Assembly: GCA_000091205.1 (NCBI GenBank)
Contig: AP006495.2
DNA from: Cyanidioschyzon merolae
Lineage: Eukaryota
Length of the DNA stretch: 64,000 nucleotides
Direction: 5' to 3' (one strand)
The translations under genes were made by a program, and so were the position numbers. Of this stretch, positions 7,354 through 50,066 are shown one piece after another (position 1 is the stretch's first letter; each line of letters starts with the position of its first letter). The notes below the pieces were generated by a model that saw only the letters and a program-made list of their open reading frames with translations, made no database searches and was not told where the DNA came from.

Positions 7354-8125
7354 GGAGCGGTTTCGTTTCGGGGAACTTTCGCGTGCGCTATGTGAGTTCT
7401 AGGGCTCCTATGCTCGACTGAGGGTACGCTGACGGTATTTCGAGACGTCATGTATGCGAGTGCTCCTCAGGCGCAGCCGCGGTGGTATATATGCTGCAGC
7501 TTGGGTTGGCGCCGGCGCCCAGCTCAGCTAGGACGCCATGTTGGGAGAGATGCTGCGCCGAAGCGACACAGGATATGCTTTGTACAGTTTTGAGCAGAGG
7601 CAGAATGCCGTGTTGCAACAGACGCTTTACAGCAGCGAGGCGCAGTAGTCACCAGAAAACTGCGGCGCGCCCGCTGTTGTCTCTGGGCTGTGTTACCGGC
7701 CTGTGCGTTATCGCACCCGTGTGGTAACTGGCCCTTCCAAAGGGCACCTCGCGCTGGCCCTACTGAATCCAGACGTCCACGAGTGACTACGTATGCTCCA
7801 GAGAGACCAAGCTGTCCCGAAGAGATGGGATGGCGACGCTCGCTCACCGCGAACCTATCATCATATCACTCTGGTGCATGGAAGGCCTGCTGTCTCAGTG
7901 GCGTACTCCTTGACTGCGCACTTGGCCTGCTCAAGCCGTCGGATGCCTGTAAAACCTAATGGAATATTCGACGCTGTGCTTCGGAAAGGCAGCGCTGGCG
8001 TCCAATAGACCTCCGGCAGGGAGCTGGCGGTGCTGCTGATATTGATGCTGGTGTCGTTGTCTCGTGCAATAAACGCAGGCCGGGTAATGCTCTTTTTCTT
8101 GAACGAGCCATTTTCCGAGATACTT
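7354..8125. repeat. 772-bp dispersed direct repeat, copy 1 (99% identical to 27903..28674)
   Basis: Base-by-base comparison with copy 2 shows only about 8 substitutions over 772 bp and sharp boundaries (starts GGAGCGGTTTCGTTTCGG, ends CCGAGATACTT). It contains a TATA-like GGTGGTATATATGCTGCAGC. The ORFs inside it (e.g. 7482..7727) are composition artefacts repeated identically in copy 2. Confidence 0.9.
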
Positions 8126-20500: not shown

Positions 20501-20650
20501 AAACAGAGCACTCACTGCCAGCAACGAACACTTTAAAAGACAAACGCTGCAGTCTGCAGTGTACACTAGTGACGAGAAACCCGCCCCAGACAAGAACTCT
20601 ACACCTGATGTGCAGACGCCTCCCAGTCTTTTCGGACCGGCCACCCATTG

Positions 20651-21910: not shown

Positions 21911-24072
21911 CCTGCTCCATATCGGACTTGCGTTCCATTTCTCGATGCAGGAACACGAAATAGCGCATGAAGGGGGAAAAATATCTTCCTCTCATCTTTT
22001 TTCATGTCTGATACTTTTTTGCTGGATTGACAAGTCCCCAAATGGCATGGTGCTCTTGAATATCCTCACGGATTACAGAACCTCCATTCCTGCTCCTTCA
22101 GAAATCGTTCGAAGTCCATGATCATGTGGTTCTTCGGGTCCGTGAGGTTCTTGGTCGCCCCGTAGAAGCAAATGCGCGAGTCACCCTATGTTGAACGCCA
22201 TTCAAGCATTCAAAAGGGGCGATTTTCATGCAGGACGAGCACTCGAGAGTTTTCCTCGGCATTTCCCTGTACCAAGCATCAGGTGGCGAATGAAGCTCAC
22301 CCTGTAAAATCCTCCGAAGTCTCGCTGTGTTGATGTCCTTGACTTAGTGGTATGTCTCTCTCACAATATGCATCAGTTTTAAAGAAGCGTAAGGAACACT
22401 ACTGGAGCACGACTCGACACGGTTTCTGATGAACACTTGCATCTGTAGCTTCTGCGGACCCTTTTTATGTCCAAGAAGACTGGCTTTCGCAACGATCTCA
22501 TCCTTGCGTCGCCTTTCGTGTAGCTTTTGGCGTCCGGCCTCCAGTTTCTGCTTCTTACTCTTCACTTGCTGCTCTGGTCTCGGCACTGTTTTCCGTTTCT
22601 TGTCGAACTCGGCGGCTCCAGGTCCCCGGGATCCGCGACTTGCATCTCCATATCATTTCTTAGATTATTTATTTCTTCAAATGAACATATTTCGAACATA
22701 TCTGCGATAAACCGTGAAAAAGCATTTGATTACATTTACCTAGGGGTAGAACAGAATTGAGTCGATAGCGATGAATGCGTTCCAGGCACGTCAATGAAGC
22801 ACACCGTATCAAACTTATTTACTCTGCACAAGGCGCATGAATATCGTTCGCTTCTCACTCACTAACTCAAAGTTCGTTTGGACCCCGTATGCGATCCAAT
22901 CGTTTCCGCGTCTCCTCAGACTACGCAAGAAAAGGCGACAGCGTCCTGTCGTGGAGGTTCTTGGCACTCCGCCAGACTTCCGATGGAAGCCGGATATCTA
23001 CCAGCAGCGTATCGGAGTGGGATTTAGAAAGGTTTCCCACTCGAATACAACACTTAACGAACTGCATTTTATTTCAGAGACGCTCTGATGAAGCATGCCG
23101 TTATCCAAAATTGTCGGAGCGCTCCCACAAACGTCGGTGTGCAGATCGCGGAAACGTGACATACATCCAGTCGCTTTGCAGTGAAAGAAAACGGAGCTTG
23201 CTAGAGGTGCACATGGTAAGCCACGCTCGAGAGAGCATAGCAACGCACCGTCATGCCTCAATATACAAACCATGCTTTTATTGCTATATGCAACTCTGGC
23301 ACTCGCTGCTGTCTCGCCCGAGCCGCAGCAACTGCTGGCTGGCACCAATCTTGAGCGTGAATCTCCTGGTGGAACGTCATGCGGACTGGACGCAGCCGTC
23401 CAGCCAGTGTCCTTTTTACCGAAGCAATATCGGGTTTTGGCTGCGAAGTCTCCGCAGATCGACTGTCATATGCTCCTCATACAAAGACGAGGGAGCCTGC
23501 CTTTGGGCTTTCGCGATCGTCGCCCCGCTCCTCCAGAATGTACTTTGGAGCAGCTTTCGCCAGCTTGCACGGCCTGCTAGACCAAGACGGACGAAGAGTT
23601 CTACGTCCGTAGTTCGGGCCCGTACCATATGAACTGTGGCCTCGAACAGACGCCATTAAAAGAAGAAAAAGACCATTCGGGTCTCCATGCGATATCACAT
23701 ACGTCGCTGGGTCGGTGCAGTCTCTTTTTCAGAAGGGAATGCTGGTTTGCGGTTGACGATAAACCATAGCGTCTTTTCGAGAACCGAGGTTTCTCTCATT
23801 GATACAGGCTTCGTTGCTGCGTTCGAGAGCAGCTCATAGGTAAATTGATCCTCGCTTGGAGAAAATTTTCCAAACGAAATCCGTCCGCGAACAGCTTGCG
23901 AGCGATCTGTGATGTACTTTGCTATTCACTCCCCAAAATCTGCAATTCAGAAAAGAGATACAAGCTTGGCTTACATACGACTCAATGCCAACCATCTCCG
24001 CAATCAATCAGCTATCGCGATATCCGCGAAACAAACCAATAGACGCTACCGCCATTCAACTTGCATGCAGTC

Positions 24073-27902: not shown

Positions 27903-28674
27903 GGAGCGGTTTCGTTTCGGGGAACTTTCGCGTGCGCTATGTGAGTTCTAGGGCTCCTATGCTCGACTGAGGGTGCGCTGACGGTATTTCGAGACGTCAT
28001 GTATGCGAGTGCTCCTCAGGCGCAGCCGCGGTGGTATATATGCTGCAGCTTGGGTTGGCGCCGGCGCCCAGCTCAGCTAGGACGCCATGTTGGGAGAGAT
28101 GCTGCGCCGAAGCGACACAGGATATGCTTTGTACAGTTTTGAGCAGAGGCAGAATGCCGTGTTGCAACAGACGCTTTACAGCAGCGAGGCGCAGTAGTCA
28201 CCAGAAAACTGCGGCGCGCCCGCTGTTGTCTCTGGGCTGTGTTACCGGCCTGTGCGTTATCGCACCCGTGTGGTAACTGGCCCTTCCAAAGGGCACCTCG
28301 CGCTGGCCCTAATGAATCCAGACGTCCACGAGCGACTACGTATGCTTCAGAGAGACCAAGCTGTCCCGAAGAGATGGGATGGCGACGCTCGCTCCCCGCG
28401 AACCTATCATCATATCACTCTGGTGCATGGAAGGCCTGCTGTCTCAGTGGCGTACTCCTTGACTGCGCACTTGGCCTGCTCAAGCCGTCGGATGCCTGTA
28501 AAACCTAATGGAATATTCGACGCTGTGCTTTGGAAAGGCAGCGCTGGCGTCCAATAGACCTCCGGCAGGGAGCTGGCGGTGCTGCTGATATTGATGCTGG
28601 TGTCGTTGTCTCGTGCAATAAACGCAGGTCAGGTAATGCTCTTTTTCTTGAACGAGCCATTTTCCGAGATACTT
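27903..28674. repeat. 772-bp dispersed direct repeat, copy 2 (99% identical to 7354..8125)
   Basis: See copy 1. Constant offset of 20549 bp with no indels; substitutions only (e.g. CTTCGG vs CTTTGG, GGCCGGG vs GGTCAGG). Confidence 0.9.
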
Positions 28675-33439: not shown

Positions 33440-34650
33440 GAGCAACTACCACAATCCTTTAACGCTGGTATTCGTTACGTAGATGTCTTCGAGATGATTC
33501 GCGACGCCCTCTAACAATGGTACGTAAACTAACCGATACCATTGCTTAAATCGTAAGTACATGCCTCCACTCTTCACCTTTCCTTACATGTACGATGTTG
33601 TTATCTCGCATACTTCAGTTTTCCGATCTTTCTATTCCAAGCCAACTTGTTGGCTCAACGGTACGTCTATCTGGATTCAATGCGAAATCTATCAACGTTG
33701 TCGTTTGACAGCATTTTCACATGCTCAAGCCAAAAGTTTACTGAACGTACATATGAAGCAATATTTTCTATTCGAGAGATGAATCATCCTCTCTGTCCAG
33801 CCATTGACGAAATACCGCTCGAATGCAGCAGCATGATACCTCTTACGGGTATAACTCCAAGGGCTCCCATCTCTTCAGATTGCTTGGAAGCGTTTCGGAC
33901 CTTGACTTCACTCATTGCATAGATTCGTTTCCAGTGAAGAGTGCATCATCGCTTTGCAGTCCGGGAGCTTCGATGACCTGGTGTATCTCAAAAAATGTCC
34001 TCCATTCGGGTTTGCAATTCGGTACTCGTTTCACCATGCGCAACAATGTGTTACGCAAAATCTCCCATCGAATTTTTTTCAGATAACAAAACGATTACAT
34101 TGACCATGGATCCCAGAATTCGGAATGGATAATGGCTTTCGGGAAAGCGTCCATCATAAAGCACCCACAGTTAAGTTCCATTACTCATAATTCTTCTATG
34201 ATATACTGGTCGTTTCGAATGTTATATAGTGCACGAGTGCCTGTTTTGAGCACACGCCATAACGCTTATGCCACTGAAGCAGATGCTACACGTAGACAGA
34301 ACGGCTTTGGCATACCAGTGAGGGCGTCGGCTTGAGGCGTGGTTCATCGGACACGGAGTCGGAGTACTTAATCATCCTGGGAGCCTGCGATAGCGCGAAG
34401 CGATATACTAGGCGTCCACTGCGACCAGGGCGACGCCCAGGCGCAGAATCCTTCTCCTAGTCCCAGAATGAATTGCGGTGCGGACGAGTTGCACAGGTCT
34501 CGCCACAGCACCTGCCACTGGAGGAAACATGAAGCACTAGCCCGGCAGACTCGTCCGGCTAGCGGACCTTCCGCCTAGAAGGTAAACTTTTGAAGATACG
34601 TAAACTTCCCGCTTTTGAATGATTACTATCAAGGTCGAAAGAAACTGTTA
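33440..34650. repeat. ~1.3-kb diverged dispersed element, copy A (5' module with TCGCGACGCCCTC, 3' module with conserved GCGGACGAGTTGC...CAGACTCGTCC stem)
   Basis: Alignable by eye along its length to 48490..49800 at roughly 75-80% identity. Shared blocks: CTGGTATTC, GGGAAAGCGTCCA, TACTGGTCGTTTCGAATG/TACCGGTCGTTTCGTAGG, CTGGGAGCCTGC, GCGAAGCGATAT, CCCGGCAGACTCGTCC, CCGCCTAGRAGGTAAAC. Confidence 0.7.
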
Positions 34651-35670
34651 TCGAGTTGCTAGCTAGTGGTTAGTTTCTGTTCTTTCATCCTCCAGCGAAT
34701 GGAACAGCATGCGGTTTCGTGCACAGCGGACGATGCTCACGTCGTGGGGATTGATCAGCAGAGGACCCATAGTCGTAGTTCAAGATACTGGGAGGGAAAA
34801 CGGAGAAGGACTTCAAGGGTAGCATTATATACTTGTCAAAGACGTGTACCATGCGAAGAAGAAAGTGTTTGCGCGAATAGTGCGGCGCTCTGATGGGGAA
34901 GTGCGGTGCGAGTTGGAGAACACCTAACCATAAAAAAGTCTCACCACCGGGAGGGGCACGGCGAGGCTGTATGCAAAGAGAACGAAGATAGAGCGTGAGA
35001 GTTAAGTAAGGACACCCGCTTGTGCTTGAAATGCGGGGAACGCAACGAGAAGCAGCGAAACCAGGACGTTGATGCGACCATGTTCAACCTTTGACTGCTG
35101 AAACGGAGCTGAGGGGACAGAATAGAACTCCATGTTTTAAAGCCGGAGAACGGGGGCAGTAGAATAGGAAGCGTTTGCTAAGAAAGCCAGCAAAGTATGA
35201 GGTTGGATTACTTCGGAAAGAGGCCCCGATACATGTACGCAGCCCGTGCTACGTTCGCGTACCCGTTCCATGTTATTCCCACGCAGGTATAGATAGCGGT
35301 GTCCAAGAGGAGTCCAGCATAGCTACACTATTTGAATATTCTGATGTTGTAGCGTGCATGGTGTACAATTTACAGGACTGTTTCATCAATGGATTTCAGT
35401 CAGTCGCATACAGCTTCAGATACGCAGTTTCTGGCCGCGGATGAACAGCCGCTCGGAAGCGCTTCACAAATGAAAGCGCAGAAGTCTCAAAGGAACAGGA
35501 TAATCTTTCAACAGCCGTAACTTCCACGCGAGGGGCCGTCTTTTCACATTGGATTAGTCCTTGAATGAGGAGGGGCTTCGGAAGCGCAACCTGCTTCCGC
35601 CTTGTGCAGTGACACATGCACACACGAAGACTACACCGATTGCATCGGCCGAAAGGGAGATCTTTCCCTA

Positions 35671-38316
35671 CTACGAGAGGTCGAATCCGAAATTTTGGGT
35701 AATAGCATACTTCAGCTTCTCCCGCATGGCCTCTCGAGTCGAATATGGGGGGAGTTTGAGCAGATTCATGCACGTGGAGGCCGTGGGATACCGTGATGCG
35801 TCGTCACCAGCTTTTTGAATGCAAAACGGGGGGTTCAGATACTGAAACCCGAGCAGGGGTGCTCTTGGCGAGCTTGTCACGAATTGGAGAAGGGCTGCTC
35901 GCTCTGAGTCCGATAGATCTTCTTGCACAACTTGCCAAAACAGTTCAACCGTTCCCGAGTTCTCGGAGTATCCACCTGAGTATGTTACGTTGCTGCGCAA
36001 GTTGTCAATGTCAATCTTGCCAGAGCAATCGCCTGAGATCAACTCACGAAGCTCCCATTCATTGAACATCTGAATCCATTCTCTCTCGATGACATCGAAG
36101 AAACCGCTCATAAAGGCTGTCGTCTGTGCTTTGATCTGCCGATTCAGCCTATAGTCAGCTACGCGATGCATGTACTCCAGCCGATTGTCCCAAGTCACTG
36201 GAATGGAACTCCCTCCAGGAATCAGCTCCTTCTCAACTGCTTCCCCGAATTCATTGTCGACAACAGTAAATGTCAGACAAAGGTCTCCAAACGAGTTAGG
36301 ATCAGCATGCCGAAGAAATTTCAGATTTCGATGCAGCTCCGGATCCAGAGAACGCAAATCGTTAAGATCATTACTTATACCCAACAGTTTGCGTAAGAAG
36401 AATGATGCTATCGGGAGATCTACCAAGATCGCATCGTAGAGCGCCTTGCCCAGAATACGCCCAAGAAAAGAAAACTGTTCCAAATGATTCGACGGTGCGA
36501 TGACACTCGAGGCCGGATTAGGGAAAAGCTCCCCACCATCTGTTGCCTTAAATAGACCATAATGGGTCGGCGAGAATGCGAATCGAATCAGTTGATGCAT
36601 GAACTCTTTGAAGACACCACCTCCATCAACACCGGCCTCCTCAAGGCCGTACTCGTCCACGAATTTAACTCGAATATTCTCACGAAGTCTGGATCCCAGA
36701 GAGTTCAGTTGCGCAAAAGCATCCTCGACGATAAAGTTACGCCGTATAGTGATCCAAATCCCATTCATACCGAAGAAAGACTGACCTCCGCCGGCTCGCG
36801 CCTTTTCCTGTGCTATGCATCCGTGGAAGATGCGCACGCGCGTCTCAAAAGAGATGGAGAAGGGAGCCATTCGCAGCAGCGGCATACCGCTATTTTTCCG
36901 AACAGATTCACGCACGAACAGCTCCGGTGCCTTGCGTGCAGCCTGAACTTCCCAGAGCGACTCACGTTGTACTGTAAAGGGTCGCCTTGCATCCCTTGCC
37001 CATAGCGCTAGCAACAAGCGACTAGACGCCTGTAGAACGTCAGCCGCGGCCAAGTCCCATTTGTTCCGGCCAGTCGGGCGGGCACCTGTGCTTGTTGTGT
37101 AGAGTCTCCAAAACAGCTGTTCTTTCAACTCATTGATTATCTCCAGAACAAAGGACAGATTGGTCGCAGAGTAAAAGTCATCGTCGTCCATCACTAAGGT
37201 TGATACGCGGAAGGACTCACAGAAGAGTCGAAGCAAGGCCCCCGATGAAGAAATCATGAGCGAATGCCACATTTGACGGAGGTAGTCTCGGGAATGAGAG
37301 AATGCAAGGACAGCGCATACGCGGTGGTTCATAGCATCGTGCTTCTCCAATAGTTCCGCAAAACGCCTCCAGTTTTCCGGATCCCATTCGAGTGCGTGCA
37401 TCAAACTTTTGAGGAAAACGTCGCTCTGAGTTAGTTTTGAAGCGAGCTCGTCCAACGGACCGACCCGATCGACGACAAAGCTCAGCAAGAAAACGTGGTG
37501 TTTCGAGGATGGAAGCGACAGAGTGAGATCGCATATTCTGCGTATTGCACTCTTGCTAAGCGTAACTCCATGTTCTGCAATCAGTTTCGCTAAGCTTTCG
37601 CTGAACAAGTGCGCAGTGGCTGGCATGTCTATGTCATCACTAGTCATCACCAGTGTCGGTGCATCTATGAGGAACCTCCCGAACTCAGCGGATGGTCCAC
37701 ATATACGGCATATTTCCTTTGCAGATTCGCCAGTTGTGCGGCCTCGCATAAGCGCAAGGATGGTATTAGCGAACCGCTGCACGGCTGTAGCACAGCGTCG
37801 AGCATTTTCAAGAAGGAAGGCTTCATCGCCGAGCGCAGCAGCCGATATGAAAATATGGCCTTTTAAAGCTATCGAAACATAAGTACTGCGCACGAGTTCG
37901 CCGATAAGGCCTCGGTGTTCGTACCAGTGTAGCCGTGCCTTGTCATGCTGAGCTTTCGAAAGCTGGACAAGGAAACAGAGCGCACGCACAAATCGTACCG
38001 CCGCGTGCGTGTCGTATGGCAGCGGCCCCTCACTCTGAGCAAGATTCGCGACGCGTTCCACCAACTCCGCTTCTATTATTTTAGAAAGCCGTCTGCACTC
38101 GAAGTACTGCCGTGCCAGTGATTGGATGGCCACAGCTGACCTCTCTTGAGCGCGCTGGGCAGCCCGACGTTCACGCTCCAGACGGGCCTTTAAAAGAATG
38201 CTCTCTCTCGAGGGAGCAACGTTAGATGCGCCACGGAGCGAGATAGCGCTTCTTCCCCCTGTGTCAAACAGCTTCGAAGCAGTGGCTCTCCTCGACGAGA
38301 ACTCACTCTGCATCAT
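35671..38316 (-). CDS. HECT-type E3 ubiquitin ligase with N-terminal IQ motif (UBE3B/UBE3C, plant UPL6/7-like)
   Basis: IQ motif AVAIQSLARQYFECRRL near the N-terminus. C-terminal HECT lobe with catalytic Cys, ...RYPTASTCMNLLKLPPYSTREAMREKLKYAITQNFGFDLS. 880 aa uninterrupted. In-frame ATGs at 38316/38313 (the track ORF begins TTG at 38328). Confidence 0.9.
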   Translation of the reverse strand: MMQSEFSSRRATASKLFDTGGRSAISLRGASNVAPSRESILLKARLERERRAAQRAQERSAVAIQSLARQYFECRRLSKIIEAELVERVANLAQSEGPLPYDTHAAVRFVRALCFLVQLSKAQHDKARLHWYEHRGLIGELVRSTYVSIALKGHIFISAAALGDEAFLLENARRCATAVQRFANTILALMRGRTTGESAKEICRICGPSAEFGRFLIDAPTLVMTSDDIDMPATAHLFSESLAKLIAEHGVTLSKSAIRRICDLTLSLPSSKHHVFLLSFVVDRVGPLDELASKLTQSDVFLKSLMHALEWDPENWRRFAELLEKHDAMNHRVCAVLAFSHSRDYLRQMWHSLMISSSGALLRLFCESFRVSTLVMDDDDFYSATNLSFVLEIINELKEQLFWRLYTTSTGARPTGRNKWDLAAADVLQASSRLLLALWARDARRPFTVQRESLWEVQAARKAPELFVRESVRKNSGMPLLRMAPFSISFETRVRIFHGCIAQEKARAGGGQSFFGMNGIWITIRRNFIVEDAFAQLNSLGSRLRENIRVKFVDEYGLEEAGVDGGGVFKEFMHQLIRFAFSPTHYGLFKATDGGELFPNPASSVIAPSNHLEQFSFLGRILGKALYDAILVDLPIASFFLRKLLGISNDLNDLRSLDPELHRNLKFLRHADPNSFGDLCLTFTVVDNEFGEAVEKELIPGGSSIPVTWDNRLEYMHRVADYRLNRQIKAQTTAFMSGFFDVIEREWIQMFNEWELRELISGDCSGKIDIDNLRSNVTYSGGYSENSGTVELFWQVVQEDLSDSERAALLQFVTSSPRAPLLGFQYLNPPFCIQKAGDDASRYPTASTCMNLLKLPPYSTREAMREKLKYAITQNFGFDLS

Positions 38317-39059
38317 ACAACACAGCAAACAAAGCGTGTACGTTTACGAAAACGGTCGTTGAAATACAGAACGCAGGCAGAAAGATTGATGTCATTCGGC
38401 CGCAACGCCAGAGTTTTCCGGATCTATCTCGACACCGTAAAACTTGCAGACCTCACCGTAGGCTCCCCGAGAGCTGCATACTCGTCAGAGACAGCTCCGA
38501 GGACATGTAGACATAAGCCTGGTGTATAAGTCCACCTGCCGTAGCGCTTATTTTAAGTGATTTGAGAGCTTCACTCTCGTTTGGCAAGGCTTCGTTGACA
38601 AGTTAGCATAAACCTTTTGCTGACCACGACGTTTCAGAGCGAAAGCCCGGGCGGCTACAGGGTTGCAGCCTCTTTAGTGAATGCTTCGCTGACTTTTTGT
38701 CATAAAGCTCTTGATTTGAGCTGCTTTTCTGAGGACGCGGTTGAAGTAGGCAGCGGTTAAGCAGCAGCAGCAGCCCAGATGGGCCTTTACATCTAACTTA
38801 TGCTTCGAGCACGCTTTTTGAGTGCGTTATTCTAGCCACCAGCGGCGTTCTTCCGCAAAGTTTCCGCAAAACGAAGAAAATTTAGAGCTGCTGTTACTCG
38901 ACCAAGTGTTACCTCTCTTTTAAGCTACGATATTTGCGGCTTTCAGTGCACAGTGCACACTACATCAGTCTCAGACTGAAATGAAACACTGAACTGAACG
39001 CTCTGATCCTGCGTATCGATTTTCAGAACTTTGTTTAGGTGTCCAAACTCCATTTTCGA

Positions 39060-39450
39060 ATTGCGGCAGTAAGTGCTTTTGTATTCACATGTAGTTTCAC
39101 AGTTCTCTGTCCTATTTTCGACTTTACTCGGTCGAGTCCTTGCTGTCGAAATTTGTTAGGTCACTGGTATCAAGAAGAGTCGCGACGCCCTCGAACACCT
39201 GGTTCGTAACGCGATCAGTATAGGTATTCAATTCTCACATATAGGCCTCGACTGTTCTTCTTTCCTTCTAGCATACGTAAAAGTCTTAATCGTAATTTTT
39301 TTTCGATCCTTCTTCTCCATGTCGACTCGTGAGCTCGGCAACTCTCGCTGCTTGATTTAAAAGTAAAAGTACTTTAGACCGTCGGATTAAGATTGTTCAC
39401 AAACTCGTGCCTTACGCTCACAGAACTCGGCTTGCCAGTTGATCATTTCC
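39060..39450. repeat. partial copy (5' module) of the ~1.3-kb dispersed element
   Basis: Contains CACTGGTATCAAGAAGAGTCGCGACGCCCTCGAACACCTGGTTCGTAA and CCTCGACTGTTCTTCTTTCCTTCTAGCATACG, matching copy A at 33469..33600. A further partial copy is at about 90..300 (TCGCGACGCCCTC at 126..138). Confidence 0.55.
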
Positions 39451-41790
39451 ATTCGAAAGGAAATCTTCCGCATTCTGTGGCCATCAGTCATACGCTATTC
39501 CACAGTACCACAATAACTCGTAAACGATGTGCTCCCAGAGGCTCCCTTTTCCCCTGTTTGCAAGGAAACGGGCAATGTCTTCGGGCTTTCACCATCGTAG
39601 AGATCGCTTCCAGTAGAGTGCGTCTCCGCATTTTCACGACGCGTGCGTACATCGACGGAAATTGCTCGACTTGTTCTGAAGCTTGGTTTTCCTTCCGGTG
39701 CATGTTGCATCATTGACTGCACCGCGTTCTACAGATTCTTTGTCGAATGGAACAGAACGCACAGGTGTGTGCAGCGGGCAGAGTAGGCGCCGAAGAGATC
39801 GCCCAGAACATGCCCCACGGCCGATAGGTCCGACATTACGGCCAAATATATTGGAGTGCATTGAGTGGAGCCTTCCGAGCCCGTCACAGTCATGTTCCGA
39901 GAGATGGTGCGATCTTTCAGACGCCATATGAGGGCGCCCGGAAGGGACTGCTTGATTGGTATATTCGAACAGCTAACCACAGTCAAGCATCACAGCAGCG
40001 AAAGGCGCACCGAGATCGTATGCGAAGGAGATGGAAACAGCACGCGAGGCGTCGAACGCGACTTCCGCATGCTCATGAAATGGGCAGAAAACACCATGAA
40101 GCGCTGGACTCTGGTATTCAACTCCGCCACTAGCATCCCTGAACTGCTACCGTGGAAGCTGAAGTGACTGGAGAAACCGTATCATTTGAAGCATGAGCAA
40201 AAATAGAGGAAAAGGAAGCACTCAAAGTTAATGTCTGCAAAGTGGGCGTCGATGACGGTGGGAAGACACCCAAACTTAAGACGCACGCCCATGTTAGGGG
40301 AACGCTGCCATTCAATCCGGAAACCGGTGTAAATGATATATTCGCCGTCAATTGAAGAAGACATATCATGAATGGCGCAAAACACTCTTTAGACAGTTTT
40401 CCGGATCTTGGCGCGCAATCCGCGTTTGTGACACAGAACAATAAATCGAAATTGCGAGATTAAATTGTTCAGATAATGGCAGTGAAATTCGGATGCCTAA
40501 TTTTAATTTTGAGATAGTTGCGCTCATTATCGAATACATTTTATGTTATTCACTGAATGAAGCGCATCTTCTTGACATCAAAGTGCAATTTATGCAGCGT
40601 TTTCAAGATGACCTTGCGGCGAAGTGTGCAACAAAGGGCACAGGGCTTTTAAATCATTCAGTAGAGATTTCCTTCTACGTTCGGTTTTAAAAGCGTCGTA
40701 GTCGGTTCAGTGTAGAAATCTTCAGCTGCGCTGCATATTATCGAACAAGTCCTTTCTAAGCTTCATTACATCTTCAGATAGCATCAGAGCGATCTTTCTT
40801 ACTTACAACATCTGCGCCTCGGAACTTTTCCCGGTTGGTGACGAAACAAACAAGTGAGTTTCCGAGTTTGCCTGATATTCACTTCGGCGGGAGACGGCTC
40901 TTCATTTACTTTTGGCTGTATAGGCAGATATCGCTGTCTTGGAAGTATCCTTTCCAAGATCGTGCACCGAACACTTCGACAGCTGAAGTTCGATTCAAGA
41001 ATATCTTTGAAAGGGGTGAAACATGTATTTCCCTAGCGCACTGATCGTATTTTGCCGGACTTCCATGCCCACGCTTATACGATCCCCTTGTCAAGAGAGC
41101 GTTGATCCTGTGAAGTGGTCCGAAGAGATAGCACTTGCCGTTTTACCCACAGGCGAATTTGCTAGGAAATTTCACATCTTCGGTCCACAGAAAATATCAA
41201 ACTCGCCTAAGGCTGCTTTCACCTTTCGGGACCACCTCGCTCTATCCGAGAGATATTGCACTCAGGAGATATTGGTCGCCATAAAACGTTGCTTCGAGTA
41301 CTGAAAGTCCCGTCATCCACGCTTTTCTAATCTTTGATTGAACGACATTTTTTTCTTTCTGTCTCTTATCGAAACGCAGAAAAACTGCTGTTTACAATGG
41401 TCACCTATGCAGGTTGGAGCTTTTTGGGAGCTTCTCTCTGTCTCAATACTGAGCCCTCCACGAAAGCTCTGCGTTTCAAACGGTCCTGGAGCTGTGCGGT
41501 GCCGTGCGCGAATCGTAGGCTCAAGCCGACGCCCTCTGTGGAACGGCAACGCGGTTCTGTCTCCGTTCAGCGACCGCACCGGCGCTACGGCGCAATTGCG
41601 GTCGCTCTCGGCAGGTTCGGCACACGATAGGACGTATCAAACGACCAGAATATCCGAGAAGAAGTATAGGAAATGTAAATTGGAGGTAGGGGTTTGATGG
41701 ATACTTCACCGCGCACTGAAAAAACACACAAAAAAAGTAAGCAAAGAAAAAGCGCACAGTCGGAGAATTCTTGCCTACCTAAACATTTTG

Positions 41791-42879
41791 TCACTTTAAA
41801 AATCTGCGCGAATCGCACGGCACCTTCGCACGGTCTAAAATTGGATGTATCGACTTTCGCCAGAGTGCAGGGAATAGCAACAAAATGATCATTGTTGGAT
41901 AGCCTGCAGGGAGTTGTGGACTTTCTACTGTTGAAACGAGTAAATGATACGGCCTATCGGCATGTCGATGATGGTCCGCATGACGCTGCAATTTGAACAA
42001 GATATAATTTGTTAGGCGATGTGAGGAATTCCAACTGTGACAGTTGGAAACAGGCTCATAAATCTTCTCACCATTCGGAAGGACGTTAATGACAGCTCTC
42101 TCGAGCCCGTAATGCTCAATGTAGTTGACCATTTCAAGAAGGGTTATAGCCGTGAAACAATGGAGCAAGAAAAGGCAACATGCTCGGAGGCCGTAGAGGA
42201 AAAATATTGTCAGAAACCAAAGAACAGAGCAAGCGAAATATCTAAGTATCCGATTCTCAACGCAGAAAGTTTGAAAGCCTCGCTTCGCTAATCTCTCTCT
42301 TTCTATTTTCCAAGCGCTGCGAAAGGATCCGACGACTGTACGGGGGAAGAACGCATAGAATGATTCGCCATAGCGGGCCGTTGCGGGATCCTCTGGCGTT
42401 GCAACTCGCCTGTGGTGTCCGTAAAGATGCTCAATATAAAAATGTCCATAACACACAGAAACCAAGATTGCCTTCCCAAGCGCTACTTCAGCAGCGTTTC
42501 GTTTGTGAAAAAGTTCGTGGCTCACATTCACCCCTTGCGCAGCCAAAAGGCCCGCAGTTAGACCAAGGCCAATAAAAGATGAAACGCTCAGATCCACTCC
42601 TTCGCTTGCTAGCCTTGCTGCCCAGAAGAGAAAGGACCATTGCACGGCCGGCCATACGTACAGCACAACCCTGTACGCCAACTTATGGCGTCCACTATGT
42701 AGTTCGGCATCACACGGGTTCTCTTCGTCGAGGCCAAGAACAGCATCTAAAGCCGGTATGAGCACAAAAGCGAGGAATATCGACGCGAACGCTGTTGACC
42801 ACTTCTTGAAAATGAAACTCGTAAAAGAAACAAGGGGCACAATGTAAGCAACACTATACACTAAGGCTGTTGCTGTCAT
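41791..42879 (-). CDS. integral-membrane non-haem di-iron hydroxylase of the AlkB alkane-1-monooxygenase type (FA_desaturase superfamily)
   Basis: All four AlkB signature boxes are present: HELFHK (Hist-1), EHLYGHHRRVATPEDP (Hist-2), NYIEHYGLER (HYG motif), LQRHADHHRHADRPYH (Hist-3). Multiple N-terminal TM helices. 362 aa starting at ATG. Confidence 0.8.
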   Translation of the reverse strand: MTATALVYSVAYIVPLVSFTSFIFKKWSTAFASIFLAFVLIPALDAVLGLDEENPCDAELHSGRHKLAYRVVLYVWPAVQWSFLFWAARLASEGVDLSVSSFIGLGLTAGLLAAQGVNVSHELFHKRNAAEVALGKAILVSVCYGHFYIEHLYGHHRRVATPEDPATARYGESFYAFFPRTVVGSFRSAWKIERERLAKRGFQTFCVENRILRYFACSVLWFLTIFFLYGLRACCLFLLHCFTAITLLEMVNYIEHYGLERAVINVLPNGEKIYEPVSNCHSWNSSHRLTNYILFKLQRHADHHRHADRPYHLLVSTVESPQLPAGYPTMIILLLFPALWRKSIHPILDRAKVPCDSRRFLK

Positions 42880-43514
42880 AGGAACGTCTGCCGAAAACTA
42901 CGCTTACAGCGGCGAACGCTTCGGCGTCCGTGACGTGTACAAATCGGTTCTGACGCTTTATTTTCTTTCATCTCAATTGTATTCCACCGCAGCAGGGTAA
43001 TGCATGTTTTTTCGTGGTTTATGGCAGATGTGTTCAATGTACTTTCATTTGGAGAGAAAAAATCAAAGTGTAAGTTATGGTCACGGAAGTCGGTGATCCT
43101 GGCGGACCGCCATCACCAGCTGCCGAAATGAAAACGAAAAATCTTCTTCTTACTCGCTACACAGCGGAGAAGAGCAAGTGGGGAGGCAGAAGAAGAGGAG
43201 ATAGATAAGAAAACTGTTTGCCCCACGTGACGAAAACGAGACTGAAGTAGTGCAGAGGGTGCTATTGCTAGGAATTCGTTAGAAGGTGAGCTCCACCTTC
43301 GTCAATGGACGCAAGGAGTCCTTGAACCGAGTCTTCAACGCTTCCATAAATATGCGACAGCGCTCGGTGCTGAATACGAGACCCGCGTAGCTGGTGCGAG
43401 CCATCTTTGTGGAGGCAGCCGCTCACGGTCGAATTTTACGAGAAGAAGCTGGAACCGATAGTAGGGAGCCAGCAAAAAGGCCGGGAGGCGGCCGTGATTG
43501 GCTATTATTTTACC

Positions 43515-43826
43515 CTACGACGTTGTGACGCTCTTTCGCTCCGTGAGCACTTGCAGGAACTTCAGCCAAGAGCCGCGATTCACACAGCCCGTAGCCACCC
43601 ACAAACCCTCTCTCAGAATAGAAAAGGAATGGGTCCCCGAACTTGGGGCGTAAAGCTCAAGTTTGGGGATTTCCAATACTATTAACATCATCTTTTGCTG
43701 GCTTTTTCGGCGACTGCTCCTCTTTCCTACGCTCTCCATTGTAAGCAGTCGAACGATGTTGAGAGCAGCGTAGAGTGCATACATGGCCTTTAGCGGCTGT
43801 TGTTCACGCATTTTATGTATGAGCAA
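43515..43826 (-). pseudogene. fourth TnpB/Fanzor-like RuvC-III relic, same family as 11788..13093
   Basis: Encodes ...AMYALYAALNIVRLLTMES. The nucleotide block TTGTAAGCAGTCGAACGATGTTGAGAGCAGCGT matches 11875..11910 (TTGTAAGCAGTCGAAGGACGTTGATGGCAGCGT, which encodes RDLNAAINVLRLLT), and the flanks CTTTTTC..GACTGCT..CCTC also match. Confidence 0.55.
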
Positions 43827-45008
43827 ATTTTACGATCTACGCTTCGTGTGTCATTGTCATTTGTTTATGTAACAGGTCTGTGCGGCCTTCGCATTGGTGA
43901 CATTTGGCCGTGGTCATATTTTTCCGCATGACCATAACACCCAATCGAACGCTGAGGGCCAGCCAGTGGCACATGAACGCATGCTGCATCGCTCGGCAGA
44001 TGCCCTTGACGAGTGCAGAAGGCTCGGCTCGATGTTCTCCTCCGATTCAGCGTGCGCTGCTGTACCCTACGTCCACGGGCCTCTTGTAGGCGATCCCCTG
44101 GTACATGCTCTGTTGGCTGCGCGCGCAAACGCACGCTGTTCCACTCGTTGAGGAGTTTGTCGAACGCGAGTTTTCTAGAATGAAACATTTTCGTGAAACA
44201 AAATCCAGGCTCGAGATCAAGTCGGGAAATTTCGATTCGTCGCCTTCCGCTTCGTGCACAGAAATGACGCCCTCTCTACGAGAGGCGATTGTTGCGGCAA
44301 CTAAAGTCCGAGTCCAAGGCACTTTTCGTTGCAAAAAAAGACGGAGAGCCGATGGGAACTAATTCCTTAGGGATATTATGACGCCGGCGAACGCCAGGTC
44401 GCCGATGACTGCGAAATGAGGAGAATATGTCTTTTGGACGAAATCGACTATTTGGCGTGTTACATAGAGTGAACGTTGGGTATGGGCTTGTTAACAAGTT
44501 TTCAATCGTCGACGTCGTGTTTCTCTTGTCGGAAAGCCAGTAGCGTAAATGCTGCACCTACGAGTCGACATAAAGAAGAATGATCAAAGAACTGAAGCAT
44601 GCATAACGTGAATACGCTGTATATAAGGAATGCAGAAGACTGGAGGCTCGCACGTAAGCATTGAATAACGAAACTGGTTATTTTACGAATACCTCCTTGG
44701 GGGCGTCGGGAATTAGCATGGTGTCAGTGAAGTGACGGGTTCCACGGCAAAATTTTGGAACGGCCGCTCGGAAACGACAACCGAGAATCCTAGGCCTACC
44801 TAAGATTCTGTATACCCTTATTGCTGTGCTCTTAATGTCGAGACTGTACATCATAAAAATTCGATAAAGGAATAAGAAAAACGAACAGACCGTCCAGTCC
44901 AGTGTTCTATTTTAATTTGACACGCATGCGGCCGTCCCAAGCGCAGCGTAACCACGTTGCTAGACCTCGGGCAGTATTTTTGCACATAGTCATAACAAGA
45001 GGAACACT

Positions 45009-46841
45009 ATGGAACTGAGCTCAGGGAACACGATCGAAACGGTGACGAGTGATCAGGATCTCAGGAATGAGACAGTGGGCTCGGATGATGGATCTGTCTT
45101 GAGCAAAAACGAGCTAAAGCGGCGTATGAAGGCGCAGCGCCTTGCTGCAGAGCGCGAACTGCGGCAGTCGAGCCGAGTTCAGCAACATCAGGCGGCTGCA
45201 CGCGATGCTTCCTCAGGAAACCAGGAAGCGGACGAAGAACTGATGACGTCCCAGCAGTATTTTAGCCACCGATGTCGAGTTGTCGAGCACTTTCGCTCCA
45301 GCGGAGAGGATCCCTACCCCCATAAGTTCTACGTGACGTGCAGCGTACCGCAGTTCATCGCCAAGTACTCATACTTGGGTGTAGGTGAGCGCCTCGATGG
45401 GGAAGAGGCTTTGGCAGGTCGCATTCGCTCGCGGCGCTTGTCTGGTTCGCGATTATTTTTTTACGATATTTTCGCTGATGGAACTAAAGTGCAAGTCATG
45501 GCCGACGCACGGTTGGATACTGCAGGCAATTTTGCCACTGTGCACAGTGCACTTCGCCGCGGGGACATCATAGGTGTCCGCGGCTATCCAGGACGAACGA
45601 AAACAGGTGAACTTAGTATCTTTCCCGTCGAGACGAGGCTGCTGTCACCGTGTCTACACATGCTGCCGAAACCGCACCAGATGCTAAGCGATCCAGAAAC
45701 ACGCTATCGCCAACGTTATTTGGACCTCATCGTGAACCGCGAGGTTCGCCCGATATTTGAACTCAGAGCAAATGTCATTCGCTTCATCCGCAAATTCCTG
45801 GACGAACGTGGTTTTCTCGAAGTCGAGACGCCGATCATGAATGCTGTTGCAGGTGGCGCGAACGCGAGGCCGTTTGTGACCTTTCATAACGAGCTTGGGG
45901 TCAATATGTATCTTCGCGTTGCACCAGAGCTCTACCTGAAAGAGCTCGTGATCGGCGGCCTGGATCGAGTTTATGAGTTGGGCCGAAACTTTCGAAATGA
46001 GGGTATCGATATGACGCACAATCCGGAGTTTACAGCCTGTGAATTTTACGCTGCATATCTGGACTATAAGGATTTGATGGATCTGACAGAAGCGATGTTG
46101 AGCTTGTTAGTGAAGGAGCTGACTGGGCATCTGAAAATCAAGTATCATCCCGAAGGGAGGCATGCTCTGGAGAACGAGGTCGAGATCGATTTTACCCCAC
46201 CGTTCAAACGGATCTCCGTCATGGATGCTCTGCGCGAAGCGCTTCCGAGCGAGCTGCGACCGCTATTTCCCGAATCTGAGCAACTCGGTACAGACGAGTC
46301 GCGCTTCCGTTTGGAGACTATTTGCGAGCGAGTGGGTGTAGTTTGCCCGCCTCCGGTCACAGAAGCACGCCTGCTAGATAAGCTTTTCGGGGCGCTCGTG
46401 GAGCCGAAGTGCGTTTCGCCCACGTTCGTTTGCGACCATCCGGAAATCATGAGCCCACTCGCAAAATGGCACCGGAATCGACCCGGCCTCACGGAACGGT
46501 TTGAACTTTTCGTGAATGGGCGCGAACTCTGCAATGCATACACAGAACTTAACGATCCCTTTGTGCAGAGGGAACGATTCCTGAGCTCACAACGGGACGC
46601 GGACAAAGGCGACGCGGAAGCAATGGCGAAAGATGAAGATTTCTGTACGGCGCTGGAATATGCACTTCCGCCAACTGCTGGCTGGGGCATTGGTATCGAC
46701 AGACTCGTGATGCTGCTCGCCGATCAGAACAACATCAAGGAGGTCGTGCTTTTCCCGGCACTGCGACCGCGCCCTAACTCTGACGGCGACGAGGCAGCAG
46801 AACTGCGAGATCGCGTTCAAGACCTGAAAGTTAAAGAATAA
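45009..46841 (+). CDS. KARS: lysyl-tRNA synthetase, class II (eukaryotic type)
   Basis: 610 aa starting at ATG. Anticodon-binding OB region; class II motif 2 [20 protein letters not shown]; motif 3 [31 protein letters not shown]-terminal Lys-rich tRNA-binding extension typical of eukaryotic LysRS. Confidence 0.93.
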
Positions 46842-46928
46842 AGATCAACTTTTGGAATGCAGGTCAGTGAAGTAATTACTCCCAAATAAGAATAAAAAGG
46901 GACAGGTGCCATCTCACGGGCGCATAAT

Positions 46929-47376
46929 TTAAAGTTTGGGTCTTTTCCTTATCCCATCGGACTCAGAATTTGCGGACTCTTTCTGCAATTGCTTCCTTTT
47001 CCACTCACACATCTCAGGCTCTAGATACCAAGGTCGTTCCTGTCCGTCCAGCTCATTCGCCGACAATATAAAGATGTTAATGGAAGCTTTAAAGTCGTGA
47101 TTTCGTTGCTCCCAAATGTTTTCAACGTATTTCATGCATCGTTGGAAATAACGTTCTACGGTTCGCTTGGCAGTTTTCATCTTATTTGTATATGGCCTCG
47201 GTGCGCGCTTCGCAACAGTGACTCTTTACTCTGATCGGGTATTCCCATACATCCGTGAAATCTCCCCTGTCTCCGAAGGCTAACCAGTAGCGCGAGAAAG
47301 GTTGCTCCATCACTCGGTAGTTGCCTTTGACGGTCACGGAAGGCTTCAATCGATGACCTCTTCCATTTCTATACAA
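46929..47376 (-). CDS. candidate small two-exon gene (possible Cys-containing mitochondrial complex subunit, NDUFB9-like guess); the two ORF pieces are in different frames
   Basis: ORFs 47182..47376 (…YWLAFGDRGDFTDVWEYPIRVKSHCCEARTEAIYK) and 46929..47180 (MKTAKRTVERYFQRCMKYVENIWEQRNHDF…QERPWYLEPEMCEWKRKQLQ) are adjacent and offset by one frame. PWYLEPEMCEWKRK loosely resembles NDUFB9 YKVPEWCLDDWHPSEK. Confidence 0.25.
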
Positions 47377-48489
47377 AGTGCCGTACCGTGTGGTTACTGG
47401 CTCTCGCCCGGCAATCCCCTCGATCAGTATGCTATCCGCCTTACGCGAAAGCGCAAGCTGTTCGGTTCAAGAATTCACCAACTGCTTCTTTTCATGCCCT
47501 GGTGGCGTCCTTGATCGTGTTTAAACGCGAAGAATAAAATTAAAGTGTGCAAGTTAGCTCGTCCCCCGCCCTATGCTGTTTTCCGATCAGAACGCAAGAG
47601 GATTTATAAAATGCGACGTCATCCGTGATGTAACAAATGCCTTAGGGAAAATAGACATAGGAGAAAATCTCGAGAAATTTCGATCCGTAAATGATTCCTT
47701 CGTGGTAAGCGACATCGACTGTGAATCAAATCCGGATCTGAGGCCCTGTTCAATGTGAAACGATCAGACAAAAGCGAGTAGGGTGCATATCCGGGGAGAT
47801 ATCCTGTTGTTGTGGAATGTAGTTTCGGCGATGTTCACAAAGAGCAGCGGATTCGTCGTTCGGACGTATCTGACTATTTGGCGTGAGAATTTCGCTCATG
47901 TTTCAGCATGGTCTTGTGAGGAAGCCATCGTAAACCGACTTCGGATGCTTTTACTCGTCCGCGTGGTTGCGCGAGGCCCTACGTCCATAAGTTACCTTGA
48001 AACAGAAAAATCGAGAGCTTGAGGAATGCGTAATTTGAACATGCTACACGTCTGGAAAGGAGAAGACTGGAGGCTTGTTCGTTTGAATATGGATCATGAT
48101 ATCGGTTCTTTGCCGAATTTTGCTCGAGTGTGTCGCCAATCATTTTGATTACATTGATGGCAAGCATTCCAACTGCGCAGCATTGAAGAAGTCGATCCCA
48201 AAACGAGGCCCGAGAACCCCAATTTGCTAATGCATCAGGAATAACTTATCGCAGCAAATTGTATGCCACGTCTGTACATGTAAAAAAGTTTGAAAACGAG
48301 ATCGAAAGGTAGGAATAGATCGTGCAGCTCAAAGTCTTTCAATTCAGTTTTATTCAACATTCACTGCAGTGTGTGGCAGGGATTTGACGCCTGGAAGCAA
48401 GGTACCCTATAGACTGTTGACGAATTGCCTTTAGGATATACATTCTTTACTGAACAGTGAAAGGAGGACTGCATTCCCCCTTAAGGTCA

Positions 48490-49800
48490 GTCAAACCACA
48501 ATATTCAGATGGGTGAGGAATGCGGAATCAAAGGAATGAATGCTGTCCGCGCCAAAAACTGGTATTCTCGAAGACTGCTTGCAGTCAATAGTAGAAAACG
48601 ACACTTTGGACTCGCTACGGTAAGCAAAAGCGACGTTGGTAGCGGCAAATGGCTTTTCAGTTTCTCAACAACGCGTTCGTGTGGCCCTGAAAAAAACTGG
48701 ATACTGTCGCAAAAAGAAAGTCTTAGTTTATGCACGGCCATTTCCCACCGAGGTCGCAGCTAATTCAGCGTTCCAGGAACGTCGCTATCCGTATGAAGCA
48801 CAGGGACAAGGACGTCGGTTTGCTCTTTCAGTCGATGAGAATTGCTTCGGACGAAACGGTCAGAACGCATTCGGGTATTCGCGGAACGGGAGCCCGTTGT
48901 ACGAAAGACCGAACTGGAAGAGAACGACGACATACCACCTGGCCTAGCTGCAGGGGATGTATTTAACGGCCTCAGTTCGCTCGTAGGGAAGGTTCATACA
49001 ACAACACCGTATTTGCCAAATTATTGAAGTCTTTTCCTTGACGTCTGGTGACGTCCTTCTGTTCGACGACGTAGTGTTTCACCATTCCACTTGCAACTGA
49101 GCTTCTGCGGATTCTCTCTGGCCAGAACTGCTTTTCATTCCGCGGTGTACTTCGTGGTCGAACCCAGTCCAGCAAGTGTTTTCTGTTGTGAAACATAATG
49201 ATAGCTCCACTGGGCGAATGTTTTTGTTTGGAAAACCGTTTACATTGACGACGGATCCGAGGTTGCGGGACGAATACCGCCTTCCGGGAAAGCGTCCACC
49301 ATGCCGCACACTACCTCCAAGTGCCAATACCTGTACTCGGTTGTACCGGTCGTTTCGTAGGTACTAACGCTCGCCAACCCTGTCGTTATAATCAGCATCA
49401 AACGTCTATATCGCTTGTACAGATGCTGCACCGATACAGAAAGCCCTTGCCATATCTATGAGCGCGTCGGCTCGAGACGTGGTTCACTCGACATGAGGTC
49501 GGGACTCTTCAACTTTCTGGGAGCCTGCAAACTGCGCAGACAGACCTACAACCTGCGGCAGCACGAAGCGATATCCTAGGAGCCCATCGCAACCAGAGCG
49601 ACGCCCGGATGCAACCTACACGCTCCATTTCGCATAATAAACTGTGTTGCGGACGAGTTGCTCAGACCTCGCTGTAGCACCCGGCACCGAAGAGACATAC
49701 GCTTCGCAAGCCCGGCAGACTCGTCCAGTTCGCCGGACCTCCCGCCTAGGAGGTAAACATTCTAGAATACGACAGTGTTTTCCCGTCAACGCTGGCCGTA
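48490..49800. repeat. ~1.3-kb diverged dispersed element, copy B
   Basis: See copy A. The 3' module is 49443..49758 (AGCGCGTCGGCTCGAGACGTGGTTCA...CCGCCTAGGAGGTAAAC). The 5' module is a degraded TCGCGACG region at 48558..48650 (CTGGTATTCTCGAAGACTG...TACGGTAAGCAAAAGCGACG). Confidence 0.7.
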
Positions 49801-50066
49801 AAGAAAGAAAGATATTTTTCTATTTTGTTTGTTAAAGATTACTTGTGTTCCCTGATCAAGAAATTGCGATTGCGCGATACACATGAGTAGGACCGCACCT
49901 GCGACATGCGCTGGGTGCGTCGCATCGCTGGCAGTGCAAATTTGTCGCAAATAGTCCCCGAGATCGTTGCTCGTGTGTCGGCACCGCAGATGCATGGAGA
50001 AGCAATGGCGCTCCAGGCGCGCTTCGATGCTGGCGGCGGAATCCGAACGATCTGGACCATTCAATC

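Follow-up and report, generated by a model that had tools for sequence, protein, structure and literature searches.

Copies A, B and D in the window (the whole stretch of 64,000 nucleotides analysed here) are very probably decayed insertions of TE-N2_CMe, which we read as a non-autonomous non-LTR retroposon dependent on a LINE. The sequence-only reading had presented A and B as an unclassified element, but sequence comparison places them in this catalogued Repbase repeat and not in a new family: the ~646-nt family consensus matches the published 5′ region of CMe-1A at 93.5% identity over 630 nt, and copies A, B and D show 79.8%, 76.8% and 79.8% identity to the same region (for D, over the part that it covers). 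TE-N2_CMe has been described as the 5′ region of CMe-1A, present in ~70 copies, with its class given as unknown and with TSDs that could not be determined (Bao & Jurka 2013, Mob DNA 4:12, PMC3627910). Nothing essential differs between that repeat and the family studied here, which share the organism, a similar length (635 vs. ~646 bp) and the absence of TIRs, none of which were found when the element was searched for them. The present analysis adds TSDs to the description of TE-N2_CMe, together with an A-rich tail and, on the opposite strand, homology to a LINE. One motif-anchored metagenome scan yielded 71 matches, all of them true relatives (71/71), which collapsed to 37 distinct copies, including 15 distinct full copies; as the copies were collected via a motif inside the element, estimates of conservation near that motif are biased.

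The window was assigned to chromosome 13 of Cyanidioschyzon merolae 10D. Its LysRS is an exact match to BAM81103.1, and the desaturase protein is also exact for this strain.

The homology of copies A and B (nhmmer E=4e-60) and their shared orientation were confirmed, but the 1.3-kb extent and the 75–80% identity first given for them were both too high. Similarity is limited to 34072–34687 vs. 49217–49856, i.e., ~620–640 nt, with a measured identity of 61–66%, and the upstream ~630–730 nt of the supposed 1.3-kb copies do not align between A and B. On the B side this upstream part is what remains of a decayed transposase of the DDE_3/IS630-Tc1-mariner type (Pfam DDE_3 E=4e-5); it matches window positions 4808–5616 on the minus strand and gave no match in a word-indexed protein search. 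The Tc1/mariner-like transposon beside B was also considered as the source of the element, which would then be its 3′ part. This was rejected: the module is missing from the paralogous remnant at 4808–5616, neither A nor D has the transposase, and no C-like sequence resumes past B.

Copy A (34072–34687, minus strand, which is its sense strand; E=3e-196 with an nhmmer profile of the 15 copies) is a full-length short retroposon of the TE-N2_CMe type, 85–89% identical to the family consensus. Its boundaries were set from the 15-copy alignment, and it is flanked by a degraded TSD, CCATCGAAT / CCAGCGAAT. The A-rich 3′ tail (CTGAAAAAAAT on the minus strand) occupies 34072–34082, and a ~100-nt non-coding head without LINE homology, beginning TGAAAGAACAGAAAC... 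on the minus strand, occupies 34590–34687. Copy B (49217–49856, minus strand, nhmmer E=7e-168) is an older copy of the same type, 73–75% identical to the consensus, and adjoins the unrelated Tc1/mariner-like remnant. Copy D (41516–41804, plus strand, nhmmer E=6e-69) belongs to a short class of ~290 nt; it carries four extra nucleotides (TAGG) before its start CTCAAGCCGACGCCC at 41520, ends in ...GTCACTTTAAAAATC, and lies between the two halves of an exact 11-nt TSD, TGCGCGAATCG, at 41505–41515 on the left and 41805–41815 on the right.

The orientation first assigned to the element has to be reversed, as three features place the functional strand opposite to the one originally read: the RT open reading frame, the A-rich tail and U-G pairs that are specific to one strand. 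On this strand the element consists of the ~100-nt non-coding head, C-terminal ORF2 codons, a 3′ UTR and the A-rich tail. Its LINE-homologous part corresponds to the last ~40 ORF2 codons and the ~450-nt 3′ UTR of an APE-type LINE that resides in the same genome. Model positions ~61–540 align, on the element's sense strand, to LINE copies bearing RVT_1 and CCHC domains; in the long copies, RVT_1 (E=6e-20) and a CCHC knuckle lie opposite to the strand first read. The LINE relatives encode an APE endonuclease and an RT, and the LINE consensus ORF is open over 748 codons, through the hairpin region discussed below to its stop. The C-terminal ORF2 motif reads CYLLGRRS in the LINE consensus and VYLLGGRS in the short-element consensus, and the LLGG block is kept in APE-LINE relatives at 31–35% identity. 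Homology to the LINE copies stops directly after GAAGGTA, and the ~100-nt head was seen only joined to short elements. The shared tail of the element is only ~65–70% identical to the sampled LINE family, so that its exact partner is probably another LINE; a second LINE family (P0015/L076) was set aside as partner, its 3′ end being lost at a contig end. Substitutions among LINE copies showed no codon-phase bias, the RT domain included, which is what neutral decay after insertion would produce. As first noted, no ORF is common to A and B, tblastx showing stops in every frame; coding capacity is absent from the copies and the consensus head, with stops in all frames, and the relic ORF2 tail amounts to ~30 codons. 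The size classes are discrete: one of ~646 nt, one of ~300 nt whose start falls exactly on CTCGAGCCGACGCCC, and that of the LINE itself, which measures several kb. The ~300-nt class with its single sharp 5′ end is newly defined here.

The ends of the copies bear the marks of retroposition. Every full copy ends in ...GTCAT(C/T)GAAAAAAA(T) on the LINE-sense strand, and at least eight independent short-class copies share an identical 5′ end. With mismatched flanks as controls, exact TSDs of 9–13 nt were found in four of nine short-class copies (control 4.8±0.8, maximum 8), and TSDs of 11–13 nt, with one mismatch allowed, in 3/15 long-class copies (control 7.8±1.3). TSD length varies across copies from 7 to 13 bp, and a few untemplated bases occur at the 5′ junction. 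Most copies, copy B included, are without a recognisable TSD, as is expected at 25% decay, and the TSD evidence comes from about eight copies. The A-rich tail, the TSDs and the discrete 5′ ends are therefore read together as those of a non-autonomous non-LTR retroposon.

These same ends bear on whether TE-N2_CMe could instead be a non-autonomous DNA-type derivative, that is, the 5′ module of the Fanzor1 element CMe-1A moved at the DNA level, which we consider improbable. The 5′ 635 bp of CMe-1A are ~95% identical to TE-N2_CMe, a similarity that speaks for such an origin, and CMe-1A itself is a Fanzor1-bearing unit amplified to ~150 copies by a mechanism that was left open (PMC3627910), so that a DNA-level route is conceivable for some copies. 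A Fanzor unit directly follows the short element at two loci (L052 and L030), and no TSD was found around the one complete TE-N2 plus Fanzor composite, in L052. The A-rich end, the variable-length TSDs, the extra 5′ nucleotides and the homology to the ORF2 C-terminus and 3′ UTR of a LINE nevertheless argue against it, as does the absence of TIRs; with no TIRs and a TSD length varying from 7 to 13, the element does not qualify as a MITE or TIR transposon either. Moreover, Fanzor sits in a discrete unit that has hairpin-forming ends of its own. This unit is also present directly after a LINE tail, in the opposite orientation, and it occurs in the window with TE-N2 absent, which suggests juxtaposition and not a common origin.

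The idea that the copies are solo LTRs of an LTR retrotransposon, prompted by sharp ends, a length of ~640 bp, a ...CA 3′ end in the orientation first read and some loci with two copies, adjacent or several kb apart, has a negligible probability. No gag, integrase or LTR-type RT stands beside any copy, and host genes lie between paired copies. The TSDs are variable at 7–13 bp vs. 4–6 bp for LTRs, a TG start is absent, the RT beside the long copies is antisense and of the non-LTR type, and no LTR elements were found in this genome by Nozaki et al. (2007, PMC1955436).

The description "SINE-like" holds in a loose sense (dispersed, non-coding, retroposed and LINE-dependent), but not for a Pol III origin, as no Rfam, tRNA, 5S or 7SL match was obtained. 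A true SINE, in which a Pol III head from a tRNA, 5S or 7SL gene precedes the LINE tail, would be a special case of the retroposon reading and is unlikely here. The head-plus-LINE-tail build and the discrete 5′ ends are in line with it, and a partial A-box-like string (C..AGTGG) was seen by eye 12–22 nt into the ~300-nt class. On the other hand, a B box was not recognisable, ARAGORN found no tRNA, Rfam gave no match for the element or its head at E<=1 on either strand, and 646 nt including a 540-nt LINE part resembles a LINE deletion derivative more.

A conserved long-range RNA stem was the central claim of the sequence-only reading. On that view the element is a structured non-coding RNA, or carries an RNA domain as part of a mobile element, with a stem GGACGAGT/ACTCGTCC kept by selection on pairing. 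This we regard as very improbable. The two mutually complementary arms are present as described and identical in both copies, spanning 34482–34556 in A and 49651–49726 in B (arms at 49651–49658 and 49719–49726). The loop between them, said to have diverged almost completely, measures 59–60 nt and is 67–68% identical (40/59), at or above the average of the whole element. Across the 15 independent full copies, 82.1% of cells are paired vs. 82.3% in shuffles, with 21 uncompensated broken cells vs. one double change, and related LINE copies lack the claimed stem sequence. Single-sequence folds gave z = -0.8 and -1.0, and the missing Rfam matches weigh in the same direction. By our own estimate, any 640-nt sequence should contain about one chance 8-bp inverted repeat within 100 nt, and a 65%-identical alignment of 600 nt should contain exact runs of 13–14 nt.

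The positions of the arms relative to the LINE reading frame offer another account of their conservation. The 5′ arm in A (GGACGAGT, 34482–34489, plus strand) comes shortly after the relic ORF2 stop codon on the LINE-sense strand, and the 3′ arm (ACTCGTCC, 34549–34556, plus strand) is the antisense of the relic ORF2 codons P-D-E-S (CCG GAC GAG TCT). The nearby terminal hairpin ACCTTC-CGCCTA-GAAGGT (34566–34583, plus strand) is the antisense of the (Y)LLGGR codons, a conserved C-terminal motif of ORF2. Copies A and B differ in this hairpin by one double change, which could favour selection on structure; read in the relic ORF2 frame, however, the double change amounts to a pair of third-position changes, CTT>CTC and GGA>GGG, both synonymous, and the pair test of the hairpin was marginal only. 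The sequence-only reading had itself named two outcomes that would speak against a structured RNA, and both were found: the conserved segments belong to a less-decayed part of a protein-coding transposable element, the 3′ arm and the hairpin being relics of the ORF2 C-terminus, and covariation was lacking once more copies were aligned. A second long-range pairing tested for compensatory change received no support, a scan of viral contigs with the stem pattern gave no match, and no telomerase-RNA template motif was present in the window. The structured-RNA reading of the element is thus not supported.

One local helix did survive testing, in the shared 3′ UTR and on the LINE-sense strand. This 8-bp helix (A3 columns 51–54 and 57–60 with 87–94) is paired in 82.3% of cells, a level that none of 500 shuffles reached (73.5±1.4), with 24 double-change cells vs. 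8.2, giving the candidate helix moderate covariation support; RNAalifold over the whole shared 3′ region gave only -2.2 kcal/mol. In copy A the candidate stem-loop lies at 34250–34286 on the minus strand, its arms at 34279–34286 (GCAUCUGC) and 34250–34257 (GCGUGUGC) forming seven of eight pairs, and in copy D the helix is perfect, pairing GCGACCGC (41570–41577) with GCGGTCGC (41598–41605).

A mechanism consistent with these features can be proposed for the retroposon. The short elements would be transcribed from the minus strand, relative to copy A, with transcripts expected to start on the LINE-sense strand at TGAAAGAACAG... and CTCGAGCCGACGCCC. The LINE-derived 3′ region may then be recognised in trans by the LINE ORF2 protein, with its endonuclease and reverse transcriptase, and target-primed reverse transcription would place a copy in nicked DNA, after which the inserted copies would decay neutrally. 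The blocks that gave the appearance of a long-range stem are stretches of this ancestry that have decayed less, one stem arm and the terminal hairpin being relic ORF2 codons, and not sequences maintained by RNA pairing.

LINE/SINE pairs with a common 3′ tail that are mobilised in trans include eel UnaL2/UnaSINE1 and the CR1- or L2-partnered SINEs. The element resembles them in being non-coding with a LINE 3′ end and in its candidate stem-loop in the shared 3′ UTR, but unlike them it has no head for which derivation from a Pol III gene was found, and its share of LINE sequence, relic ORF2 codons included, is unusually large at ~540 nt. Comparable too are LINE deletion derivatives such as RIME/ingi and NARTc/L1Tc in trypanosomatids and HAL1, derived from L1. 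RIME, NARTc and HAL1 are likewise short non-autonomous elements formed from LINE ends and bearing the TSD and tail signatures of the parent; the likeness seen here is in the LINE 3′ end and these signatures, and would extend to the ~100-nt head if that corresponded to the 5′ end of the partner LINE. HAL1 is also cited by Bao & Jurka 2013 (PMC3627910). In C. merolae, 26 class I elements have been reported, and all retroelements were of the non-LTR type (Nozaki et al. 2007, PMC1955436), which the parent LINE, with RVT_1, CCHC and APE-bearing relatives, fits. That survey counted RT-bearing elements only, and short non-autonomous derivatives were not described there.

As first stated, the finding carries little weight, being a decayed pair of copies of a Repbase repeat with a proposed RNA structure that is not real. 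More is gained from the class that can now be proposed for a family of "classification unknown", namely a retroposon that lies on the opposite strand, depends on a LINE and has TSDs, in a minimal eukaryotic model said to be nearly transposon-free. As the 635 bp of TE-N2, on our reading a LINE-tail retroposon, are the 5′ end of CMe-1A, in antisense, a speculative and rather doubtful proposal can be added: that a TnpB/Fanzor nuclease gene spread through this minimal genome in connection with the LINE machinery, or with LINE or retroposon ends as landing sites, the 3′-UTR stem-loop then being what the RT recognises. For promoter and UTR annotation in C. merolae, it is useful that the intergenic "ORF-poor blocks" consist partly of old retroposons and Fanzor units. 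Finally, one insertion of the ~300-nt class supplies the stop codon of a host gene.

The sequence-only reading had described copies A (33440..34650) and B (48490..49800) as homologous along some 1.3 kb at 75-80% identity. Self-comparison of the window limited the similarity to about 34088-34590 and 49233-49761 (65.5% identity), while a 15-copy profile set the units at 34072-34687 and 49217-49856, with an element-wide identity of 61-66%; upstream of this core, the supposed 1.3-kb copies matched no better than chance when aligned globally. The upstream half of the claimed copy B (48406-49217, plus strand) is a decayed DDE_3/IS630-Tc1-mariner-type transposase (Pfam DDE_3, E=4e-5, under the gathering cut-off; HTH_Tnp_IS630 weak) and is unrelated to the repeat. 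Its likewise decayed paralogue, ~67% identical to it, lies on the opposite strand at 4808-5616; the minus-strand stretch 4321-4662 goes with this pair, and a Fanzor-like C-terminus fragment comes after the remnant at 4808-5616. Such an arrangement of transposase and Fanzor-like sequence is known for Mariner-type Fanzor1 carriers. As the reading had stated, two motifs are identical in A and B, and no common reading frame was found between the copies. A window search with the A+B profile identified a third, partial copy on the other strand at about 41518-41711 (copy D).

In order to sample further copies, public metagenomes were used. Contigs matching the window at 99.3-99.5% identity code for the same LysRS, so the genome is present in these data. 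Exact protein matches assign it to Cyanidioschyzon merolae 10D, and the window to chromosome 13. The scan was anchored on one motif that A, B and D all conserve, chosen away from the claimed stem so as not to pre-select that structure; the copy set is thus ascertained by a motif internal to the element. All 71 loci recovered were true relatives, and collapsing at 97% identity left 37 distinct copies, 15 of them full copies with both ends sharp. About ten short copies all end at one identical base, and about twelve copies lie within longer repeats (5.5 kb or more, 82-91% identical among themselves). In L024:843-1879, L031:1783-2820, L035:4176-5212 and L073:6021-7057 a LINE-type 3' fragment is followed, after a gap of 4-5 nt, by a full short element in the same orientation. 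These records represent a single locus recovered from several samples, with a head-to-tail insertion that is either nested or adjacent.

The element was already catalogued: over 630 nt the short-family consensus is 93.5% identical, in the orientation of the sequence-only reading, to CMe-1A of Additional file 2 (PMC3627910). CMe-1A is a Fanzor1 element of 3169 bp with ~150 copies and TSDs not determined, and its 5' 635 bp are 95% identical to TE-N2_CMe, a family of 635 bp and ~70 copies without TIRs and of unknown class (Bao & Jurka 2013, PMC3627910). No later classification of TE-N2_CMe was found in the literature searched; a class and a strand are added here.

The long copies encode a non-LTR reverse transcriptase on the strand opposite to that of the sequence-only reading (RVT_1, E=5.8e-20; motifs KTPGIDGI, FxDFxKAxDxVPH and FADG, with a CCHC knuckle after the RT). 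An eight-copy LINE consensus has an uninterrupted ORF of 748 codons that spans RT, CCHC and ...CYLLGRRSSESDAHTGPVLSAP... before its stop; a 3' UTR of ~450 nt with an A-rich end comes next. The closest full-length relatives (31-35% identity) carry an N-terminal APE endonuclease (PF03372) and RVT_1, and extend past the CCHC through a conserved LLGG block aligned with YLLG(G/R)RS; the named distant matches are of Jockey/CR1 type, and the top solved structures are R2 and L1 ORF2 proteins. L076:6001-8608 holds another LINE family from this organism, diverged from the first (RT identity 51% at the protein level and 65% at the DNA level), whose 3' end runs off the contig. The sampled LINE family is ~65-70% identical to the tail of the short family.

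The short-family consensus (646 nt) starts in LINE sense with TGAAAGAACAGAAAC and ends in ...GTCATCGGAAAAAAA. Its head of ~100 nt has stops in every frame, shows no homology to the LINE and no Rfam match, and was seen only joined to short elements. After the head, VYLLGGRSREPDESAGLVLHAP...stop represents a relic ORF2 C-terminus, followed by the 3' UTR. Given this relic, the terminal hairpin (34566..34583 in A) reads as DNA for (Y)LLGGR and the 3' arm of the claimed stem as DNA for P-D-E-S, while the 5' arm lies just past the relic stop codon. The lone "compensatory" change between the A and B hairpins is CTT>CTC plus GGA>GGG, two synonymous third-position changes in the relic frame.

The reading had proposed a long-range RNA stem kept by selection, with conserved arms around a diverged loop. 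That pattern is absent, since identity over the 59-60 nt between the arms, at 67-68%, equals or exceeds that of the whole element. In the 15-copy alignment the stem was paired in 82.1% of cells vs 82.3% with partners shuffled, with 21 cells unpaired and one changed on both sides, and in 7 of 15 copies the outermost pair is broken; LINE copies carry different, non-pairing sequence at these positions. The proposal is therefore not upheld: covariation is lacking, and the 3' arm and the hairpin are relics of a protein-coding TE. Another candidate long-range pairing, GGGCGTCG/CGACGCCC, behaved alike (89.2% vs 89.5% shuffled, 15 copies), and the terminal hairpin was marginal (86.5% vs 85.0%; 61 of 500 shuffles as high). 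Single-sequence folds were not unusually stable (z = -0.8 and -1.0), and neither Rfam at gathering thresholds nor ARAGORN returned anything in the window.

Target-primed reverse transcription by a LINE enzyme working on non-autonomous RNA is marked by TSDs of variable length, an A-rich tail, extra nucleotides on the 5' side, discrete 5' ends and a 3' end in common with the LINE. In the 646-nt class, 3 of 15 copies are flanked by repeats of 11-13 nt when one mismatch is allowed (mismatched-flank controls 7.8±1.3), namely CAGC[G/A]TATGTCGA at L037, ACCCGAGGT[G/A]AT at L032 and GTC[C/G]AATCGAT at L033; at copy A the repeat is a degraded 9-mer. In the ~300-nt class, exact repeats of 9-13 nt flank 4 of 9 copies (controls 4.8±0.8, maximum 8), and at least eight independent copies start exactly at CTCGAGCCGACGCCC, with 0-7 extra nt before it. 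Copy D is a textbook case of retroposition: its TSD TGCGCGAATCG (41505-41515 and 41805-41815) is followed on the left by four extra bases and the element (41520-41804), which ends in ...GTCACTTTAAAAATC. The short elements would thus be copied by a LINE enzyme through target-primed reverse transcription. Copy D sits in the 3' end of a fatty-acid-desaturase/alkane-hydroxylase-like ORF (41791-42879, minus strand), whose end (41791-41815) takes its last four codons (RFLK) and stop from the copy D tail; read across the site without the insertion, it would be about 10 codons longer.

The ~300-nt 3' region common to all classes was aligned in LINE sense for 29 copies. Its overall consensus fold is weak, and one 8-bp helix is kept via two-sided changes in three subfamilies (82.3% paired vs 73.5±1.4, a level reached by 0 of 500 shuffles; 24 cells with double changes vs 8.2; covariation score 0.36 vs 0.20, well over all slid controls). 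It includes many U-G pairs, which would be C-A mismatches on the opposite strand. Covariation in the alignment lends this putative helix moderate support, since no more than two or three subfamily splits account for the changes, and it is a plausible candidate recognition element for the reverse transcriptase.

A CMe-1A-type Fanzor1 (TnpB-like) unit without the TE-N2 part occupies 20559-22760 on the minus strand, immediately upstream of the gene for topoisomerase I. It has no Pfam match at E<0.01, matches the published CMe-1 Fanzor1 protein, and is 64% identical along 376 aa to the ORF of L052 (RuvC-like motifs). Fanzor units with discrete ends were found at L038:8743-11564, L052:3033-5550, L008, L060, L020 and L030, and each end can form a small hairpin (start GCGCTC-GGT-GAGCGC, end CGTTCGA-CTT-TCGAACG). 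The start directly follows the A-rich LINE tail, in the same sense, in at least three diverged copies, and the T-rich TE-N2 head end, antisense, in L052 and L030; the unit may prefer A/T-rich retroposon ends as landing sites. No TSD surrounds the one complete TE-N2+Fanzor composite.

Elsewhere in the window, a 772-bp direct repeat (7354-8125 and 27903-28674) is 99% identical across a spacing of 20 kb; neither copy has a convincing ORF, and the repeat is a recent non-coding duplication. Finally, past the head end of copy A, 34688-34735 shares at least 45 nt of near-identical flank, TCCTCCA[G/T]CGAATGGAACAGCATGCGGTTTCGTGCACAGCGG, with a diverged copy at L046 (~5320-5369), the two elements differing more than their common flank; possible explanations are a segmental duplication, gene conversion and a head-extended variant.
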